A stretch of 64,000 nt of DNA from a virus. The notes beneath the pieces were generated by a model, which was not told where the DNA came from, made no database searches, and saw only the letters and a program-made list of their open reading frames with translations. Made by a program: the position numbers and the translations under genes. The stretch's first letter is position 1. Every line of letters begins with the position of its first letter. The stretch lies in the IMG/VR virus record IMGVR_UViG_3300005613_000006, positions 108,879 to 172,878 of that record, one strand, 5' to 3'. Below are positions 2,654 through 37,635 of this stretch, piece by piece.

Positions 2654-3151
2654 ATGTATCAATGTTTACACTGCGGCAAAGACACCAACAATCCTAAGTT
2701 TTGTTCAAGGTCATGTTCTGTTTCTTACAATAACAAAACCACAAAGCGAAAACATTCCCAACAACAATGTCCTAATTGTTCAAAATCAATTGAAAGCAGG
2801 GCCACCTATTGTTCTATGCAATGTTGTCACGAACATAAGCGCAAATTGCGTTTTCGAGAGATAGAAAAAGTTCAAGCAGTTAATGTGCGAGACCCAAGAC
2901 GTTGGGCCAAACTTTATCTATTCCACATTTATGGAGACAGATGCCAAATTTGCGGCATTGAAACTTGGCAAAGCAAACCAATCATTAAAATCTTAGACCA
3001 TATTGATGGCAATGCTGACAACTGGAAGCTGTCTAATCTTCGTTTGGTCTGCTCAAACTGTGACTCGCAACTGCCAACTTATAAGTCCAAAAATAGAGGC
3101 AACGGAAGACATCTCAGGCGTCAACGCTATGCCGAAGGCCAAAGTTACTAA
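2654..3151 (+). CDS. HNH homing endonuclease
   Basis: Zn-ribbon repeats (FCSRSC), LDHIDGN..NW..SNLRLVCSNC; GGTGTATAAT at 2549. Confidence 0.9.
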   Translation: MYQCLHCGKDTNNPKFCSRSCSVSYNNKTTKRKHSQQQCPNCSKSIESRATYCSMQCCHEHKRKLRFREIEKVQAVNVRDPRRWAKLYLFHIYGDRCQICGIETWQSKPIIKILDHIDGNADNWKLSNLRLVCSNCDSQLPTYKSKNRGNGRHLRRQRYAEGQSY

Positions 3152-5499: not shown

Positions 5500-6181
5500 A
5501 GTCTACCTTTAACATCTTGATAGTCTCGAACCCCTCATCGCCAAGCACGGCGTCCATGAGGCCCCATTCGACCGCCTCCCGCGCGGTCAAGTACACGTCG
5601 TCTTTGTATGCAATCTGCTTCTCAATCTCAGCCCGTATTTTCTCCTCAGTCCAGTTTTGAAACTTCTTGCCAGCCTTACACTTCTCCACGTATATGTCTA
5701 TCATACGTGGATTCGCTACGTTCTTGTAGAAGTCCACCCCACTGAACACAGTCTTGACATTACCACTATCTCCATACTCACCATCGTGCATCATAAAATA
5801 GGAAGTGGGCATAATAACCCGGTACTTCGCCGCTTGGGGAATGATGCTCGACATAGAGCGGGCGTGGGCGTAAGACAAGGTGGACACGTTGGCCAGCTTC
5901 GGGTCGGCATTGCTATGCTCGATGGCGTCGTAGATGCCCATTGCATAGTCCCAAGAGCCACCACAAGTGATAAGGTGGACTAGGATGGGTTCTTTGCTGA
6001 TGCTGTTGAGTATTTGTAGGTTGATAAGAAACTGTCGCGTGGTGTCCCAGTCAATCATCAGCGTTTCTTCGCTAGGCGAAATGAAGATTTCTCTCGTATC
6101 CAATATGAAGCCAAAGTTGTGGGCATCATAAATCATTTCAGAGCGTTGACTTATTGTGCGACGTTTTACAGTAGCGGGCAT
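5480..6181 (-). CDS. clpP: ClpP-family serine protease
   Basis: ITCGG, ARSMSSII (catalytic Ser), MMHD (His), DVYLTAREAVEWGLMD. Confidence 0.85.
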   Translation of the reverse strand: MPATVKRRTISQRSEMIYDAHNFGFILDTREIFISPSEETLMIDWDTTRQFLINLQILNSISKEPILVHLITCGGSWDYAMGIYDAIEHSNADPKLANVSTLSYAHARSMSSIIPQAAKYRVIMPTSYFMMHDGEYGDSGNVKTVFSGVDFYKNVANPRMIDIYVEKCKAGKKFQNWTEEKIRAEIEKQIAYKDDVYLTAREAVEWGLMDAVLGDEGFETIKMLKVDYEEEEE

Positions 6182-7803: not shown

Positions 7804-8122
7804 AGCTAAACCATTGAATGCCTTTTCTCAGTCTCACAGTTTGTGGTATGGTGGCCTTGAAGACCAGCACGATTTCACGCCCTTCCGGCAGGGACATATC
7901 ATAAAATCGCACCGGCCCAATAGTTATCCAGTTAAGGTCAGCCATGATATACCGACCGGCCAACTCGACGCAGGCCCCATACGCGGTTGTCTCGTTATCT
8001 ATGTATCGTTCTGGAAGGCCCAATATATTCTCTTCCTCGATGAATGCAAACCGCATTTTTTCCTGGTCGAGGGGGTCCACCGACATAATCATCAGATTAA
8101 CGGCTACTTGAAATGTTTCCAT
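7727..8122 (-). CDS. hypothetical protein (possible degenerate Nudix fold)
   Basis: 131-aa ORF; LP...I...ET...A..L and W+S.EEL patterns. Confidence 0.6.
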   Translation of the reverse strand: METFQVAVNLMIMSVDPLDQEKMRFAFIEEENILGLPERYIDNETTAYGACVELAGRYIMADLNWITIGPVRFYDMSLPEGREIVLVFKATIPQTVRLRKGIQWFSYEELRLAQKRIRKEHFRVFRETLAF

Positions 8123-8601
8123 ACCAATTCCCTAAGTTTCTTGGGGGATATGTCATCAATACGCACGAATGCTCTTGGTAGTATTACGTCACGTTGGAAT
8201 AGTAGGATAGTGGCATTGCCGTCGCCGCCCTTCTCTATCGTGCGAAGAGGAGGGGTCTCATCTACAAACCTGCGGAGTTCTTCCACAGGTGTGAGCCAGA
8301 CCGAATCCTGTAGTACATGACACCAAAAATCAGCCCGAGTGATGCTAAGACCACTTGGCCGATTGCTTTTGGGGTTCCATGTTTCTATTGCAATGTTACC
8401 CGAACGGGTTGCGTACAAGTCATATTTGACTTCCGTAGTGAATACCAGTGGCGCGGTGACGGTTTCAATATCATAGTATCGTCGCACGTCTTTGTCTTTG
8501 GGGTCAACCTTGTCGCAACCCCAACCACACGCTTTGTACAATTCAACTACTCTATCTTCCCCATTATCTCCGTTCGCTCTGTCACGTACAAATTTGCTCA
8601 T
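8104..8601 (-). CDS. putative PD-(D/E)XK-like nuclease
   Basis: YDI...EVKYD...TRSGNIAIE...PSGL..TRADFW. Confidence 0.6.
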   Translation of the reverse strand: MSKFVRDRANGDNGEDRVVELYKACGWGCDKVDPKDKDVRRYYDIETVTAPLVFTTEVKYDLYATRSGNIAIETWNPKSNRPSGLSITRADFWCHVLQDSVWLTPVEELRRFVDETPPLRTIEKGGDGNATILLFQRDVILPRAFVRIDDISPKKLRELVWKHFK

Positions 8602-9205
8602 TGACTGCAACCCGTATTTTTTCGAGTCCATTTTTGATGCAATGATGCACAGCTTGACGGCTGATACCCAGTTGGGCAGCAATGTCCGTTTGAGACACGC
8701 CTTCAAGGTAATGCCACTCCAAACACTGGCGCTGATGGTCTGTCAATGTGCTGACATCCAAGCACTCACGGGCTTGTTCCATCACTTCACGCATACGCTC
8801 TTGTTCTTTGTGTCGAGCGTCTTCCGTGACTTCGTACAACTGCATTCGTCCGTCACCACGGTTTTGTAGGTTCAATGATATTGGTGGGTCTTTCGACTGC
8901 TGCTTGTTCCACGTAGCTATCCAACGGTGAATAGCCCATGAAGCACACTGCTTCAAGTATCCACGATGGTTGCCTCGCCCGTCCCAACGAGTCGTGCCCT
9001 CCATGAGACAGTGCATAACGTGAGCGATAGCGTCTTCGTCACGCAGCATGATGCGAGCAACAGGACCAGCGACCAACGTACCAATACATTGCTTAGCAAT
9101 GCTTTCGTACTCTTCCAAACTCAGCATCTTTGCTTCAAGTTCGGGGCTAGTCTCCAAGTAGTTGTTTTCCCTCTTGTGAACATGAATGTCGTAGAGGTTA
9201 ACCAT
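8582..9205 (-). CDS. sigma70-family sigma factor
   Basis: region 4 LTDHQRQCL...Y.EG.SQ.DIA..LGISRQAV. Confidence 0.8.
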   Translation of the reverse strand: MVNLYDIHVHKRENNYLETSPELEAKMLSLEEYESIAKQCIGTLVAGPVARIMLRDEDAIAHVMHCLMEGTTRWDGRGNHRGYLKQCASWAIHRWIATWNKQQSKDPPISLNLQNRGDGRMQLYEVTEDARHKEQERMREVMEQARECLDVSTLTDHQRQCLEWHYLEGVSQTDIAAQLGISRQAVHHCIKNGLEKIRVAVNEQICT

Positions 9206-9311
9206 AGCAATCTCCCAATCAATGTGTCTCCAAAAATAACAAACCACTGATTCGTCCAGGCTGGCTCAGTGGGAAGCCTTTATGGGAGCTATCGCCGCTG
9301 GCGTAGCTCAG

Positions 9312-9383
9312 TAGCCCATCAGGGTTCCGCCCCCCGTCTAACGGTTCCGAAGACCGTTGTGCTGTCTATCACACTCATGGGCC
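9312..9383 (-). tRNA. tRNA-Arg(TCG), non-canonical T-loop
   Basis: anticodon loop CTTCGGA; paralogous to 9584-9655. Confidence 0.75.
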
Positions 9384-9583
9384 TTAATGCAACAGGTCAA
9401 TCTTACCCTTGCCTAACACTTGTTTCAGGCTGGCAGTTTTACCTGGACGATAGAGCGCAGCCGGTTTGTTGTTGTCCAAATGTTCTCCTAAGCGTGGGGT
9501 GGGAACGGCAGTCTCGCACTGCTATCTGTGGCGTTTTCGTTTTCTCGAACCGCTCTCGCTACGCGGAACCTCACCCACCCAAG

Positions 9584-9655
9584 CAGGCCATCGAGGTTAC
9601 GCTCCCCGTCTAAACGCTTAGAAGGCGCTTGTGCTGTCTATCACACTCATGGCCC
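9584..9655 (-). tRNA. tRNA-Arg(TCT), non-canonical T-loop
   Basis: anticodon loop CTTCTAA. Confidence 0.75.
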
Positions 9656-9728
9656 GAATTACTCGAACCTGGGAAAAATGGTGTATAATATACTGAGGTT
9701 CCATTCTTTCAACAGTAGGAGATTACCG

Positions 9729-10178
9729 ATGAAATGCCTAAATTGCCTCAAGGAAACACCAAATCCCAAGTTTTGTTCTCGTAGTTGCGCCGCTACCTAC
9801 AACAATCGTAAACACCCAAAGCGCAAACCCGAGCATAAATGTACTATTTGTGGCGAACGCATAACCGCTGGTCGCTCACGATGCTCCCAACATCGTATTG
9901 GTCGTGACATGACCCTAGCGGAAGCAATCTACACCCAACATCATCGCAGCAGTGCCTTTGCGTTGGTACGTTCCAGAGCTAGAAAAGTTGCCCTGCAACT
10001 CGGTCGTACTACCTGTCAACACTGCGGTTACAATTTACATGTTGAAGTTTGTCATCGTAAACCTATTGCAGACTTTCCAGAGGACACATTATTGAGTGTT
10101 GTCAATCATCCTGACAATCTAATAGTTCTGTGTCCAAATCACCATTGGGAGTTTGACAACGGTTTATTACAACTGTAG
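9729..10178 (+). CDS. HNH homing endonuclease
   Basis: FCSRSC, C..CG...VEVCH.KP...N...NL..LCPNHH..FD; promoter motif at 9680; stop abuts the 3' end of tRNA-Arg. Confidence 0.9.
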   Translation: MKCLNCLKETPNPKFCSRSCAATYNNRKHPKRKPEHKCTICGERITAGRSRCSQHRIGRDMTLAEAIYTQHHRSSAFALVRSRARKVALQLGRTTCQHCGYNLHVEVCHRKPIADFPEDTLLSVVNHPDNLIVLCPNHHWEFDNGLLQL

Positions 10179-10249
10179 TAGCCCTTGGGGGAATCGAACC
10201 CAACCCATCCAGGTTTCGTAGACCCGGTGCTAAATCCATTAGAAAGGCT
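10179..10249 (-). tRNA. tRNA-Arg(ACG)
   Basis: anticodon loop CTACGAA. Confidence 0.8.
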
Positions 10250-10278
10250 ATAGTAAATCAGAATGTTTTCGTAGAAAA

Positions 10279-10390
10279 TGGCGACTAGGTTCGGAAAGAC
10301 GGCGTATGTTGCACCAGCATTCTAGGCGGGGAATTGAACCCCGAACAATTCTTTTATAGAGAACATGTAGTCTTATCCAGGCATTCGCCA
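10279..10390 (-). ncRNA. Y RNA (YrlA-like) copy 1
   Basis: 5' TGGCGAATG...GACTACATG, internal T-arm CGGGGTTCAATTCCCCG, 3' CTAGTCGCCA closing the terminal stem. Confidence 0.75.
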
Positions 10391-10391
10391 G

Positions 10392-10464
10392 TGGTACATC
10401 GAGGAGTCGAACCTACGCACAACTGCCTTATCAGGGCGGTTCGCACAACCGGCGCGCATGTACC
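10392..10464 (-). tRNA. tRNA-Ile(GAT), degenerate D-arm
   Basis: anticodon loop CTGATAA, GGTTCGACTCC. Confidence 0.7.
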
Positions 10465-10465
10465 A

Positions 10466-11134
10466 TAGTACGCACAACAGGTTGCACGTACTGTATAATA
10501 AATAGTGCCTATCACAAGTTCTCGGCAAAATCCGCGAGTGACTGGAGGTTTAGTATAGCGACAGTATTTCATGTACTCCATCTGTGAACACGGTAGTGAA
10601 CCGCTTCACCCGCTTTGTCCCTGTTGTTGGGCGCTACCCCTCGCAACAGCACGACACTAGAGTGACACCTGTTCTGGGGTTCTCTCAGTGTAGTTGCAAG
10701 CTACCCTTGAGTCACTCCACACAATCCTGCCACCCTCGGGCGGTAGCCGGTCTGTGTCCCTTTCGGGTTGGCGGTCTCGCCTTTCGGCTTGACCCGTAGA
10801 CACTTCCAGTTGTCACACCCGCATTTTAGGGGTTACCCCCATTTCCCGAGACTTGTTTATCTATTGCATAAATAGTCTGTAATCCGGTACTTCTGATAAA
10901 TACGGAAAATCCACTATTCCTTCCAGTAGTATTCCATGAAAGGCCATGACTCTTACGTTCCGGCTACTCGGGCATTTCGTGGCACCCATACCACTTATCA
11001 CCCACGCTACACGTTCCGTTGCCTGGGGTGTAACCCAGCCGTCAGAAACACGCTCTCGCATATTGGTCGGCAAGCCGACCGCCGTTCGCCCCGGTTAGGC
11101 AGAACAGTTTGAAAACCCTGCGACAAAGGGTTTA
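10466..11134 (-). ncRNA. large structured ncRNA candidate (~670 nt)
   Basis: no credible ORF between two tRNAs; many hairpins (GCCGAAAGGC, CCCGAAAGGG, GGGGTAACCCC) and long-range stems (GAGTGAC/GTCACTC). Confidence 0.6.
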
Positions 11135-11135
11135 G

Positions 11136-11206
11136 AGACAGCAGGGGGAATCGAACCCTCAAGTTACGGTGTTGCAGACCGCACGCCCGCCATGAGCATC
11201 ACTGTC
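11136..11206 (-). tRNA. tRNA-Cys(GCA)
   Basis: anticodon loop CTGCAAC. Confidence 0.85.
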
Positions 11207-11235
11207 TTATTCTTTCAGGCAGCTTTGCTGCCCAG

Positions 11236-11306
11236 TACGGGTACTCGGAATTGCACCGAGACCAACAGCTTGGAAGGCTGTCGTGCTGCTATTACACCAC
11301 ACCCGC
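11236..11306 (-). tRNA. tRNA-Gly(TCC)
   Basis: anticodon loop CTTCCAA. Confidence 0.9.
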
Positions 11307-11411: not shown

Positions 11412-11483
11412 TGGCTCCCTTCGGACTTGAACCGAAACCTAACGCCTTAAGAGGGCGCAATGCTACATTGACACCAGAGAGCC
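11412..11483 (-). tRNA. tRNA-Lys(CTT)
   Basis: anticodon loop CTCTTAA. Confidence 0.9.
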
Positions 11484-11930
11484 TTTGATTTTACATAAAT
11501 GTTTTTTGTATACCTTTACCAATCCAGCGTGGACTTTACGATGACAGTTAGCACAAATAACTGCGCACTTTCTGATTTCATCAAACACCTTGGGGCTTTT
11601 GTTGCGTGTCATTCGAGACACGCTTTGTTCCTTTTTGGTACTGTCTAGGTGATGAAAGTCTAAACATACAGGCTCGTTCTCACCACATAAACAACAAGTA
11701 TTATCTTGTTTGATGTCGTTGATTCGCTGCACAAACTTTTGCCGTTGTTTAGCAGCCCGAAGCGATGCTCTCTTGTCTTGTTTTTCCAAACGCTGATAAG
11801 AAGCGATAGCACCTTGCTTGGCACAAATTTTACAGTACGAATGTCGGCCATCTTTGGTCGAGGCATTTTTATAGAATTCCGTTAAGGGCTTGGTTGCCCC
11901 ACATTTGCGGCATTGTTTTGATGTTGTCAT
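11463..11930 (-). CDS. HNH homing endonuclease
   Basis: C..CGE..P.CLDFHH...KC.V.CANCH; stop lies inside the 5' end of tRNA-Lys; promoter motif at 11954. Confidence 0.9.
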   Translation of the reverse strand: MTTSKQCRKCGATKPLTEFYKNASTKDGRHSYCKICAKQGAIASYQRLEKQDKRASLRAAKQRQKFVQRINDIKQDNTCCLCGENEPVCLDFHHLDSTKKEQSVSRMTRNKSPKVFDEIRKCAVICANCHRKVHAGLVKVYKKHLCKIKGSLVSM

Positions 11931-12220: not shown

Positions 12221-12482
12221 ATACGCACACGCTAAACTCTACGTCCCAATGGATTACGAACGCAAAACCGTGTGCGTCGATGGCATTCGCCATCCAAAGA
12301 GTCCTGACTGGTTCGCCTTCTGTGTTTATCCCTTGCAGCAACCCATAGGTGTCGCTTCAACTGCAAGGCCCAGTATCTCTCACCGTACATCTCAGGGCTG
12401 TTGCCAACCACGTTCGTCAGCTTACACCCAGGCTTTCGAGGCCCCCATCGGAAGACTACGGACTGCCGTTTTCTGGACTCAG

Positions 12483-12550
12483 TGGAGCGACGGGGACTCG
12501 AACCCCGCCTCCGACCGTGCAAAGGTCAGGTCTAGCCCTCTAGCCACCCC
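12483..12550 (-). tRNA. tRNA-Ala(TGC)
   Basis: G3:U70, anticodon loop TTTGCAC, short D-arm. Confidence 0.8.
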
Positions 12551-12571
12551 TTTTTGCTCGTCGTACAAGGT

Positions 12572-12599
12572 ATTATACACCGGGAATTCGGTTTGTCAA
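12572..12599 (-). promoter_or_regulatory. sigma70-consensus promoter for the tRNA cluster
   Basis: TTGACA-16 nt-TATAAT, including GGTGTATAAT. Confidence 0.8.
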
Positions 12600-13225
12600 C
12601 CAACTTTTTGAAGATTTTCATGGACAAACCAAGCATCCCAGCCAACTTCCCTCATCCAGGTGTATCCCTTATCCCTCAGAAAAGTGGTAATATCCTCCAA
12701 ATACTTGCGGTCTCGCCCCTCATGGCAGTTGTGTTCCACGGTGATAATTCCAAACACCCAGGTCCAGTCGTAGGATTTCAGAATGTCTAGCTCCGAGCCC
12801 TCTGTGTCGATGGACAGGTAGTTAACGTAGGAAGGAGCGCCGTGTTCGGCCAGGAGGTCATGTAACGTGACGCACGGAATCTCCACTTCCCTCCCAAACT
12901 GCTGTCTTTCTTTCTGATACGGCTGGTCGAGGTCAACAAACTCTGAAATGGTGGAGCAAACACCACCAGAAAAATCAACCTCGGTGAACTTCACGGTTCC
13001 GTTGTGGGTCCACACAGCCCGCTTGTCCCTCTTGCATGTACGCCCGAACTTGTCGTATTGTTCGTCGTTTATCAACGGGTCCACGCAAATTCCTTGCCAC
13101 CCCGCCTCGTCTAACAAAAACGAGTTGCTGAAATGCTCCGCATGGCTTGCGCCGACCTCCACATAGAAGCCCTCGTTCCCTACTTTCTCCAACACGAACT
13201 TGTCCTGTCCTAACTGACTAGGCAT
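12596..13225 (-). CDS. FkbM-family methyltransferase
   Basis: SQLGQD, YVEVGA, W.GICVDP, YLSIDTEGSE. Confidence 0.9.
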   Translation of the reverse strand: MPSQLGQDKFVLEKVGNEGFYVEVGASHAEHFSNSFLLDEAGWQGICVDPLINDEQYDKFGRTCKRDKRAVWTHNGTVKFTEVDFSGGVCSTISEFVDLDQPYQKERQQFGREVEIPCVTLHDLLAEHGAPSYVNYLSIDTEGSELDILKSYDWTWVFGIITVEHNCHEGRDRKYLEDITTFLRDKGYTWMREVGWDAWFVHENLQKVG

Positions 13226-37422: not shown

Positions 37423-37562
37423 ATCGTAGCCCGTAACGTGGGCTAATCGGGGGACGACTCAAGAGCCGCCTTCACCACCAACTTTTGACAGAAGTTGGAA
37501 ACTGGGAGGGTAGCCGAAGCCACTCCCACCGCCACCAGTTCTTTATGGAAACTGGAAACCAG

Positions 37563-37635
37563 CGACCCTAGCGGGAATTGAACCCGCGTCGAGAGGTTGA
37601 AAGCCTCACATCCTAGTCCACTAGAAGATAGGGCC
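37563..37635 (-). tRNA. tRNA-Glu(TTC)
   Basis: loop CTTTCAA. Confidence 0.9.

Follow-up and report, generated by a model that had tools for sequence, protein, structure and literature searches.

The tRNA array of a T4-like phage contains a stretch between two tRNA genes, at positions 10465-11134 on the minus strand of the window analyzed here, a 64-kb piece of DNA that forms the last part of a 172,878-bp IMG/VR virus genome rated 100% complete. The phage belongs to a clade of uncultured phages of ~170 kb. Its window encodes an rIIA homologue (PHROG 612, E 4e-114) and 38 tRNA genes called by ARAGORN, all of which (38/38) lie on the minus strand, as do nearly all of the protein genes. In transcription order, the stretch follows tRNA-Cys and precedes tRNA-Ile; an earlier note on this DNA had given these two tRNAs as its bounds, and ARAGORN calls both of them on the minus strand. 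We consider it probable that positions 10507-11134 (minus strand) are the gene for an uncatalogued structured non-coding RNA of ~630 nt from this T4-like phage clade, encoded on the same strand as all 38 tRNAs. The elements that define the locus are as follows.

10391-10464, minus strand: tRNA-Ile(GAT), called by ARAGORN; 3' flank of the RNA
10507-11134, minus strand: whole conserved RNA, ~628 nt, delimited by nhmmer matches to the homologues L006, L019 and L023 (see below) and by the consensus fold
11135-11206, minus strand: tRNA-Cys(GCA), called by ARAGORN; sets the 5' boundary of the RNA
12572-12599, minus strand: sigma-70-type promoter-like site, TTGACA-16-TATAAT, a consensus match only, upstream of this part of the tRNA array

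Coding capacity, homologues and distribution

The earlier note had seen no convincing open reading frame (ORF) in the stretch, and this was borne out. Every frame on both strands of 10465-11134 has several stop codons of at least two kinds, so that no single stop reassignment opens the stretch and stop-codon recoding can be rejected. Stop-to-stop pieces of up to 81 amino acids gave nothing beyond noise with Pfam and PHROG at E<=1, and we found neither a pseudogene trace of any phage protein in the stretch nor a paralogue of it elsewhere in the phage genome. The four homologues described below share no ORF, the longest ones differing in place and strand; their substitutions lack three-base periodicity, and indels of 1, 2, 4 and 5 nt break the frame inside the conserved part. 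An open or reconstructable conserved frame with codon-like substitutions, as a protein-coding gene or pseudogene would have, is thus missing. Three further candidates were rejected: a decayed homing-endonuclease or other gene, given the absence of a pseudogene trace and of any Pfam or PHROG signal; a remnant of the vWA-like gene seen at this site in the related contig L002, to which the stretch has no similarity; and an array of tRNA pseudogenes, since tRNA models match nothing inside the stretch at E<=10.

In addition to the copy in the window, three distinct homologues were identified (L006, L019 and L023), all of them in syntenic phages, and the four RNAs share 61-75% nucleotide identity. 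L006 (IMGVR_UViG_3300018080_000152, 85.9 kb; nhmmer E 1.6e-67 over positions 4-626) was found in IMG/VR with the twin hairpin pattern CCGAAAGG...CAASCCGAAAGG, which gave four matches, one of them (L006) a true homologue. L019, a 152-kb NCBI metagenome contig (nhmmer E 3.8e-128), and L023, a Logan contig (E 1.1e-124) with an identical copy in three other runs (L024, L026 and L027), were reached through relatives' contigs, using a profile of the nuclease-like protein encoded downstream of a sigma factor. This protein (P0012; 8104-8631, minus strand) carries a TTEVK motif and no Pfam domain; its profile retrieved ~98 relatives, many on uncultured phage contigs of ~170 kb and always adjoining a sigma factor, making it a good marker for this phage clade. 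The neighboring sigma factor itself (8582-9247) has three close homologues, one of them on L002.

The L006 phage is a distant syntenic relative of the phage studied here, with proteins that are mostly 30-60% identical (37% for the sigma factor and 43% for the nuclease-like protein). The two records align in nucleotides only in the best-conserved core genes, the tRNAs and this stretch, which ranks fourth among their nucleotide matches and is the only one that is neither coding nor tRNA.

Besides this phage, three lineages of a sister subclade have the RNA. At the syntenic site, within the sequence examined, L002, L015, L016 and L017 lack it; contigs reached via P0013, P0019, P0021, P0022, P0043 and P0018 are too short upstream to score its presence. 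L002, a 45-kb Logan contig from a close relative, is syntenic with the window. At its positions 7959-9361, an ORF for a 378-amino-acid vWA-like protein and a 43-amino-acid ORF replace tRNA-Cys and the RNA, leaving beside the vWA-like ORF a 49-nt 3' stump of the RNA that corresponds to window positions 10494-10542 (88% identical). The site thus presents itself as a clean replacement polymorphism. Neither the stretch nor the L019 homologue has a blastn match in 50,697 GenBank phage records, and the nuclease-like protein has no tblastn match in the same records. Scans of IMG/VR with rIIA, the sigma-factor alignment, the tRNA-Cys 3' end and a 49-nt conserved block returned nothing, exact-motif scans of IMG/VR with conserved RNA blocks returned L006 only, a scan of JGI metagenomes with the sigma alignment yielded no new contig, and 185,579 prokaryote genomes scanned with the RNA motifs gave nothing. 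The RNA is rare and dispensable, and we take it to be accessory. No neighboring protein gene is common to the four loci, whose upstream and downstream ORFs differ, and a conserved protein partner encoded next to the RNA was rejected on this ground.

What the four loci do share is their tRNA context: in each phage the RNA is preceded, at a distance of 1-57 nt, by a tRNA-Cys(GCA)-like element and followed, after 0-40 nt, by a tRNA (Ile or Arg-ACG). The upstream elements are located as follows.

Window, 11135-11206, minus strand: tRNA-Cys-like element
L006, 2329-2401, minus strand: tRNA-Cys-like element
L027, 672-745, plus strand: tRNA-Cys-like element
L019, ~3010-3085, plus strand: tRNA-Cys-like element

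In these elements the anticodon loop, CUGCAAA, is invariant and the T arm is normal. ARAGORN calls only the one in the window and misses the other three, and their best Rfam score (window, L006 and L027) is a sub-threshold one for tRNA-Sec, at 31-38 bits versus a cut-off of 47. The upstream element looks like a non-canonical tRNA-Cys typical of the clade. L015, which is devoid of the RNA, has an 80-nt tRNA-Cys at 5864-5943. On the downstream side of the window locus, a tRNA-Arg(ACG) that ARAGORN leaves uncalled lies at ~10177-10250 (minus strand), sharing 90% identity with a tRNA-Arg(acg) that is called in L003 and 85% with a segment of G001, and a further tRNA-like T arm is found at ~10325-10345.

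Structure and anatomy of the RNA

The claim that the stretch forms a highly structured RNA was upheld by a comparative fold of the four homologues. For the minus strand of the stretch alone, the folding energy gave z=-4.7 with 20 shuffles and z=-2.7 with 40 shuffles, compared with 0 to -2.1 for six random genome windows and -1.5 to -1.9 for the plus strand; because the value was unstable between 20 and 40 shuffles, we set it aside as proof of structure. A two-sequence RNAalifold consensus contains 156 pairs, 52 of them compensatory and none broken, at -184.5 kcal/mol. The corresponding control of 60 shuffles, which preserved the pattern of conserved, variable and gapped columns, reached -82.9 ± 7.2 kcal/mol and 18.6 ± 4.2 compensatory pairs (maximum 29), and the opposite strand of the same alignment reached -112.4, showing that the fold is strand-specific.

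The four distinct sequences (window, L006, L019 and L023) were then combined in an alignment termed A5, whose consensus has 165 pairs in 27 helices, with 64 of the 165 pairs changed on both sides. Standard pairs are formed by 96.2% of the alignment cells concerned, versus 36-43% when the 3' partners are slid by 1-3 columns, and these slid controls retain only 5-11 pairs with double changes. None of 500 shuffles reached any of five measures. Most helices contain several compensatory pairs, the ones with none being helices 1, 13, 14, 17 and 19. As judged from this alignment, the sequence and its predicted 27-helix secondary structure are shown to be under strong purifying selection on the tRNA-sense strand, and we have next to no doubt that the RNA is real, conserved and structured. 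Its parts are listed here in window coordinates.

11113-11133, minus strand: 5' hairpin P1 with a CCC/GGG core (alignment A5)
10881-11133, minus strand: 5' domain, helices 1-13, 42% invariant columns (A5 consensus)
10970-11003, minus strand: extended hairpin with a conserved AUAA/GAAA internal loop; helices 8-9, 7 compensatory pairs
10934-10949, minus strand: hairpin of helix 12 with a CCYY loop, a candidate kissing partner; 5 of 6 pairs compensatory
10854-10880, minus strand: hypervariable AU-rich linker of 27 nt, 12% invariant columns, joining the two domains
10507-10853, minus strand: 3' domain, helices 14-27, 54% invariant columns (A5 consensus)
10828-10841, minus strand: tetraloop hairpin, helix 15; GUAA here, and GUGA, CUUG and GGGA in the homologues
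10656-10822, minus strand: core multi-branch subdomain, 167 nt, the basis of covariance model R1
10773-10794, minus strand: GAAA-capped hairpin 1 with an invariant loop; helix 18, 4 compensatory pairs
10758-10767, minus strand: GAAA-capped hairpin 2 (AACCCGAAAGGGA), unchanged in all four RNAs; its pattern led to the first homologue
10694-10700, minus strand: invariant 7-nt loop CUUGCAA with a self-complementary UUGCAA inside; helix 22, 4 compensatory pairs
10507-10518, minus strand: 3' box CUUGUGMUA, complementary to the P1 loop (helix 1, one-sided changes only)
10465-10506, minus strand: non-conserved tail of 42 nt adjoining tRNA-Ile, with a local 11-bp hairpin at 10468-10493

The first base of the RNA, 11134, directly follows the tRNA-Cys discriminator. 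In P1, the outer pairs covary (A-U / U-A / G-C) and the 9-nt loop YUUGUCRCA is near-invariant; the 3' box that is complementary to this loop is kept in the 49-nt stump of L002. Two simple and two long hairpins make up the 5' domain together with a multi-helix junction, and the AUAA/GAAA internal loop may resemble the UAA/GAN module. In the 3' domain, the core is closed by the 11-bp helix 16 (10811-10822/10656-10667; 5 compensatory pairs) and holds two invariant GAAA hairpins, a 15-bp arm and the arm capped by the CUUGCAA loop. Model R1, built on this core, recovers the four RNAs with scores of 186-198 bits, and it has no other credible match in the 333 kb of related loci. The core is followed by the CTGTTG/CAACAG hairpin and then by a three-way junction (10535-10612).

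The GNRA-capped hairpins picked out by eye in the earlier note are all present on the minus strand as helices of the comparative model, namely, GCC-GAAA-GGC (10781-10786 region), CCC-GAAA-GGG (10758-10767) and the one read as GGG-GTAA-CCC, which takes the form GGGG-GUAA-CCCC (10828-10841). Of the two long-range complements proposed there, CTGTTG/CAACAG (10644-10649 with 10621-10626) pairs as suggested and shows one compensatory change, whereas GAGTGAC/GTCACTC does not hold, given that the homologues provide each segment with another partner (10811-10822/10656-10667 and 10606-10612/10535-10541).

Two side observations concern the parts outside the conserved core of the sequence. The tail hairpin repeats, at 10468-10481, 14 nt of the D-arm region of tRNA-Ile (10439-10452) with 86% identity, which may be the scar of a recombination at the tRNA. 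Two plus-strand copies of ATAAATAGT (10498-10506 and 10868-10876), a sequence similar to the T4 late-promoter core TATAAATA, lie outside the conserved parts of the RNA.

Candidates for tertiary contacts were sought as complementary unpaired segments in the four-sequence alignment. A 4-bp loop-loop pairing within the 5' domain, joining the apical loop of the extended hairpin (10984-10987) to the CCYY loop of helix 12 (10941-10944), would include two compensatory pairs, and a 6-bp pseudoknot between CUYGGG (10845-10850) and the loop CCCRAG (10735-10740) would be paired in 24 of 24 cells, with one compensatory change from C-G to U-A. A third candidate, a 4-bp pairing between loops of the two domains (10911-10914 with 10596-10599), shows one-sided changes only. 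We treat these three pairings as leads rather than as findings.

Alternative explanations and relation to known RNAs

All modules of the RNA are complete and collinear in the four phages, and we think it quite likely that the stretch is a single RNA. The explanation that competes best with this one is a string of small structured RNAs that are processed separately and inherited together, for example, a 5' RNA of ~250 nt, a core RNA of ~170 nt and a 3' RNA of ~120 nt. The hypervariable linker, which splits two independently folding blocks, would suit such a string, as would the lack of compensatory change in the closing helices 1 and 14; moreover, T4 has small stable RNAs in its tRNA cluster. 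However, the order and completeness of the modules have been kept in four phages whose copies have diverged to the extent given above. Searches of the 333 kb of related loci with nhmmer and the core covariance model revealed no partial copies or lone modules, and L002 lost all modules together, save the 3' stump. Within the stretch, Rfam models at E<=10 give no sign of a processing element that resembles a tRNA or an acceptor, and candidate pairings between modules have compensatory changes. We consider a string of separate RNAs unlikely.

A cis-acting spacer that controls the processing, stability or stoichiometry of the adjacent tRNAs and has no function after cleavage would account for the embedding of the RNA in the array, for its constant linkage to the odd tRNA-Cys-like element and for the joint absence of tRNA-Cys and RNA in L002. 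Against this, an RNA of ~630 nt that has 27 conserved helices as well as invariant loops and GNRA caps far exceeds the needs of known spacers, its distance from the upstream tRNA ranges between 1 and 57 nt, and L015 has a tRNA-Cys in the absence of the RNA, all of which makes this explanation improbable.

The comparison with Rfam (release 15) that had been suggested in the earlier note gave nothing for the stretch at E<=10. At the gathering score, the whole window contains only tRNAs and one wcaG RNA motif (RF01761), which lies at 37464-37563 (minus strand) between tRNA-Ala and tRNA-Glu and scores 47 bits versus a gathering score of 42. RNase P RNA, tmRNA and other large housekeeping RNAs have no gathering-score match in the window and none at E<=10 in the stretch, the sole trace of tmRNA being a 13-nt, 10.9-bit match in L027 (E 0.68). 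ARAGORN reports a "tmRNA" at 12482-12894 (minus strand), which overlaps tRNA-Ala(tgc) and the end of an ORF for an FkbM-like methyltransferase (12596-13225); it lacks Rfam tmRNA support and is probably a false call. The group I intron model (RF00028) has no match at E<=10, and the flanking tRNA-Cys and tRNA-Ile are complete.

These searches bear on the idea that the RNA is a ribozyme or the RNA of a mobile element, such as a degenerate group I-like intron or a partner RNA of an HNH endonuclease. Large size, GNRA loops and pseudoknots are typical of ribozymes, and HNH endonuclease genes are found nearby in three of the four loci. In the window, two such genes are wedged into the tRNA array (11463-11930, minus strand, and 9528-10178, plus strand), and in L019 an HNH homologue (37% identity) directly follows the RNA copy. 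Nevertheless, no intron, RNase P or ribozyme model of Rfam matches at E<=10, and with intact tRNAs on both sides the RNA does not interrupt a host gene. The HNH genes, which encode small free-standing enzymes of the homing type, differ in side and distance and are absent beside the L023 copy. We regard this possibility as very improbable. Finally, it is hardly credible that the stretch is a decayed gene, a neutral spacer or a small-protein gene, as small ORFs of 48-88 codons on both strands and the protein gene at the same site in a close relative might suggest, since its nucleotide conservation far exceeds that implied by the low identity of the flanking proteins, the 64 compensatory pairs come with no common ORF, no periodicity and frame-breaking indels, and it is unlike the vWA-like ORF of L002 and all phage proteins.

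With >500 nt, many covarying helices and no coding capacity (~628 nt, 27 helices and 64 compensatory pairs), and with its place beside a phage tRNA array here and in the three homologues, the RNA has the features of a large ornate RNA. The earlier note had proposed "a ROOL/GOLLD-like RNA or a new large RNA class"; the second half of this proposal is supported, while the first finds no match to a ROOL or GOLLD model. ROOL (RF03087, threshold 99.1 bits) was absent at E<=10 from window positions 10300-11300, from L006 and L027 and from the whole G000 and G001 records; the control genomes of the whole-record search hold no ROOL, so that this negative comes without a positive control. GOLLD (RF02032, a model of the conserved 3' domain, threshold 150 bits) was likewise absent at E<=10 from the stretch, L006, L027 and two whole phage records. 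Given that neither model matches, the only membership test available places the RNA outside both families.

ROOL has been described from rumen samples and Bacillota. It is an ornate non-coding RNA of ~580 nt from phages and prophages, often beside tRNA islands, with many helices, pseudoknots and a little-conserved linker; it is not essential, and its function is unknown (Kretsch et al., 10.1101/2024.12.08.627333 / PMC12286853; Weinberg et al. 2017, PMC5737381). GOLLD, at >800 nt, is likewise found in phages and prophages near tRNA islands, sometimes directly 3' of a tRNA or with tRNAs in its linker; it consists of two unequally conserved domains with a conserved GAAA loop and uses self-complementary kissing loops in its assembly (10.1101/2024.12.08.627333 / PMC12286853; PMC5737381). 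Both RNAs form RNA-only nanocages via kissing loops and A-minor contacts (10.1101/2024.12.08.627333). The RNA described here resembles the two in its size class, ornateness, tRNA-array context, two domains with a variable linker, GAAA loops and patchy occurrence. It differs from ROOL in lacking a covariance match and in its occurrence in uncultured T4-like phages that are absent from the GenBank phage set. Compared to GOLLD it is shorter and, to the extent that the model can tell, has no helices or conserved sequences in common with it. The ROOL particle is an octameric nanocage.

T4 itself encodes the species 1 and 2 RNAs (rnaC and rnaD), stable non-coding RNAs inside the tRNA cluster whose function is unknown. 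They come from the same transcript as the tRNAs and mature through the tRNA-processing machinery; they measure ~120-140 nt and have simple folds. To our knowledge, no Rfam family exists for them. Likened by description only, they share with the RNA studied here the place in a T4-type tRNA cluster and the putative processing route, and they differ in their small size and simple folds.

We found no published description of this RNA. A catalogue of structured RNAs from IMG/VR holds >ten thousand candidates with a mean length of 67 nt and required occurrence in three IMG/VR regions (PMC10690425); given this mean length and this requirement, it is unlikely to include the RNA. The best reading is that it represents a new family of large ornate phage RNA.

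Proposed processing, role and meaning

No minus-strand terminator-like site was found between the promoter-like site at 12572-12599 and the RNA. Together with this promoter-like site and the flanking tRNAs, this makes co-transcription and release by tRNA enzymes the simplest route. The RNA would be transcribed as part of the tRNA-array precursor and is probably excised from it, with RNase Z/E-type 3' processing acting at the upstream tRNA-Cys(-like) element and RNase P at the downstream tRNA-Ile/Arg; the RNase P site of tRNA-Ile would define its 3' end. Once released, the RNA may fold into one compact particle via loop-loop and pseudoknot contacts, and it might act in trans during infection as an accessory, dispensable RNA. 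On balance, we lean towards a single product of a tRNA-punctuated transcript that acts in trans.

By analogy, its most likely role would be that of an RNA-only scaffold like the one thought to apply to ROOL and GOLLD, and the invariant palindromic UUGCAA loop could allow self-association. Self-assembly as in ROOL and GOLLD, suggested by this analogy and one invariant palindromic loop, is a tentative idea at best. Similarly speculative is a third independent class of large phage RNA that would form an RNA-only multimer through intermolecular bridges of UUGCAA and GAAA and, while T4-like phages infect their hosts, act on tRNAs or the translation machinery.

Several points weigh against our overall interpretation. 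The transcript and its ends are predictions from the DNA. The single-sequence folding score is a modest signal, the decisive evidence being comparative, and this comparison includes only four distinct sequences, with covariation judged over the fold as a whole and not by an R-scape-type significance for each pair. The closing long-range helices 1 and 14, already mentioned, belong here as well. The tertiary pairings were chosen post hoc, and 13-17 of 500 shuffles reach their scores; the scaffold and self-association rely on analogy and on a UUGCAA palindrome that could be due to chance.

The function of ROOL and GOLLD is an open question, for which the only common clue is their home beside phage tRNA islands. 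The RNA described here occupies this same niche in a quite different lineage, that of uncultured T4-like myoviruses with 38 tRNAs. Given that a large ornate RNA unrelated to them by the available models is found in the same niche of a different lineage, this suggests that it is the niche that is selected and not one particular line of RNAs. The new RNA thereby provides an independent system for asking what such RNAs do and whether they assemble, with two experimental handles, namely, its natural presence or absence among close relatives and its constant association with an odd tRNA-Cys-like element.

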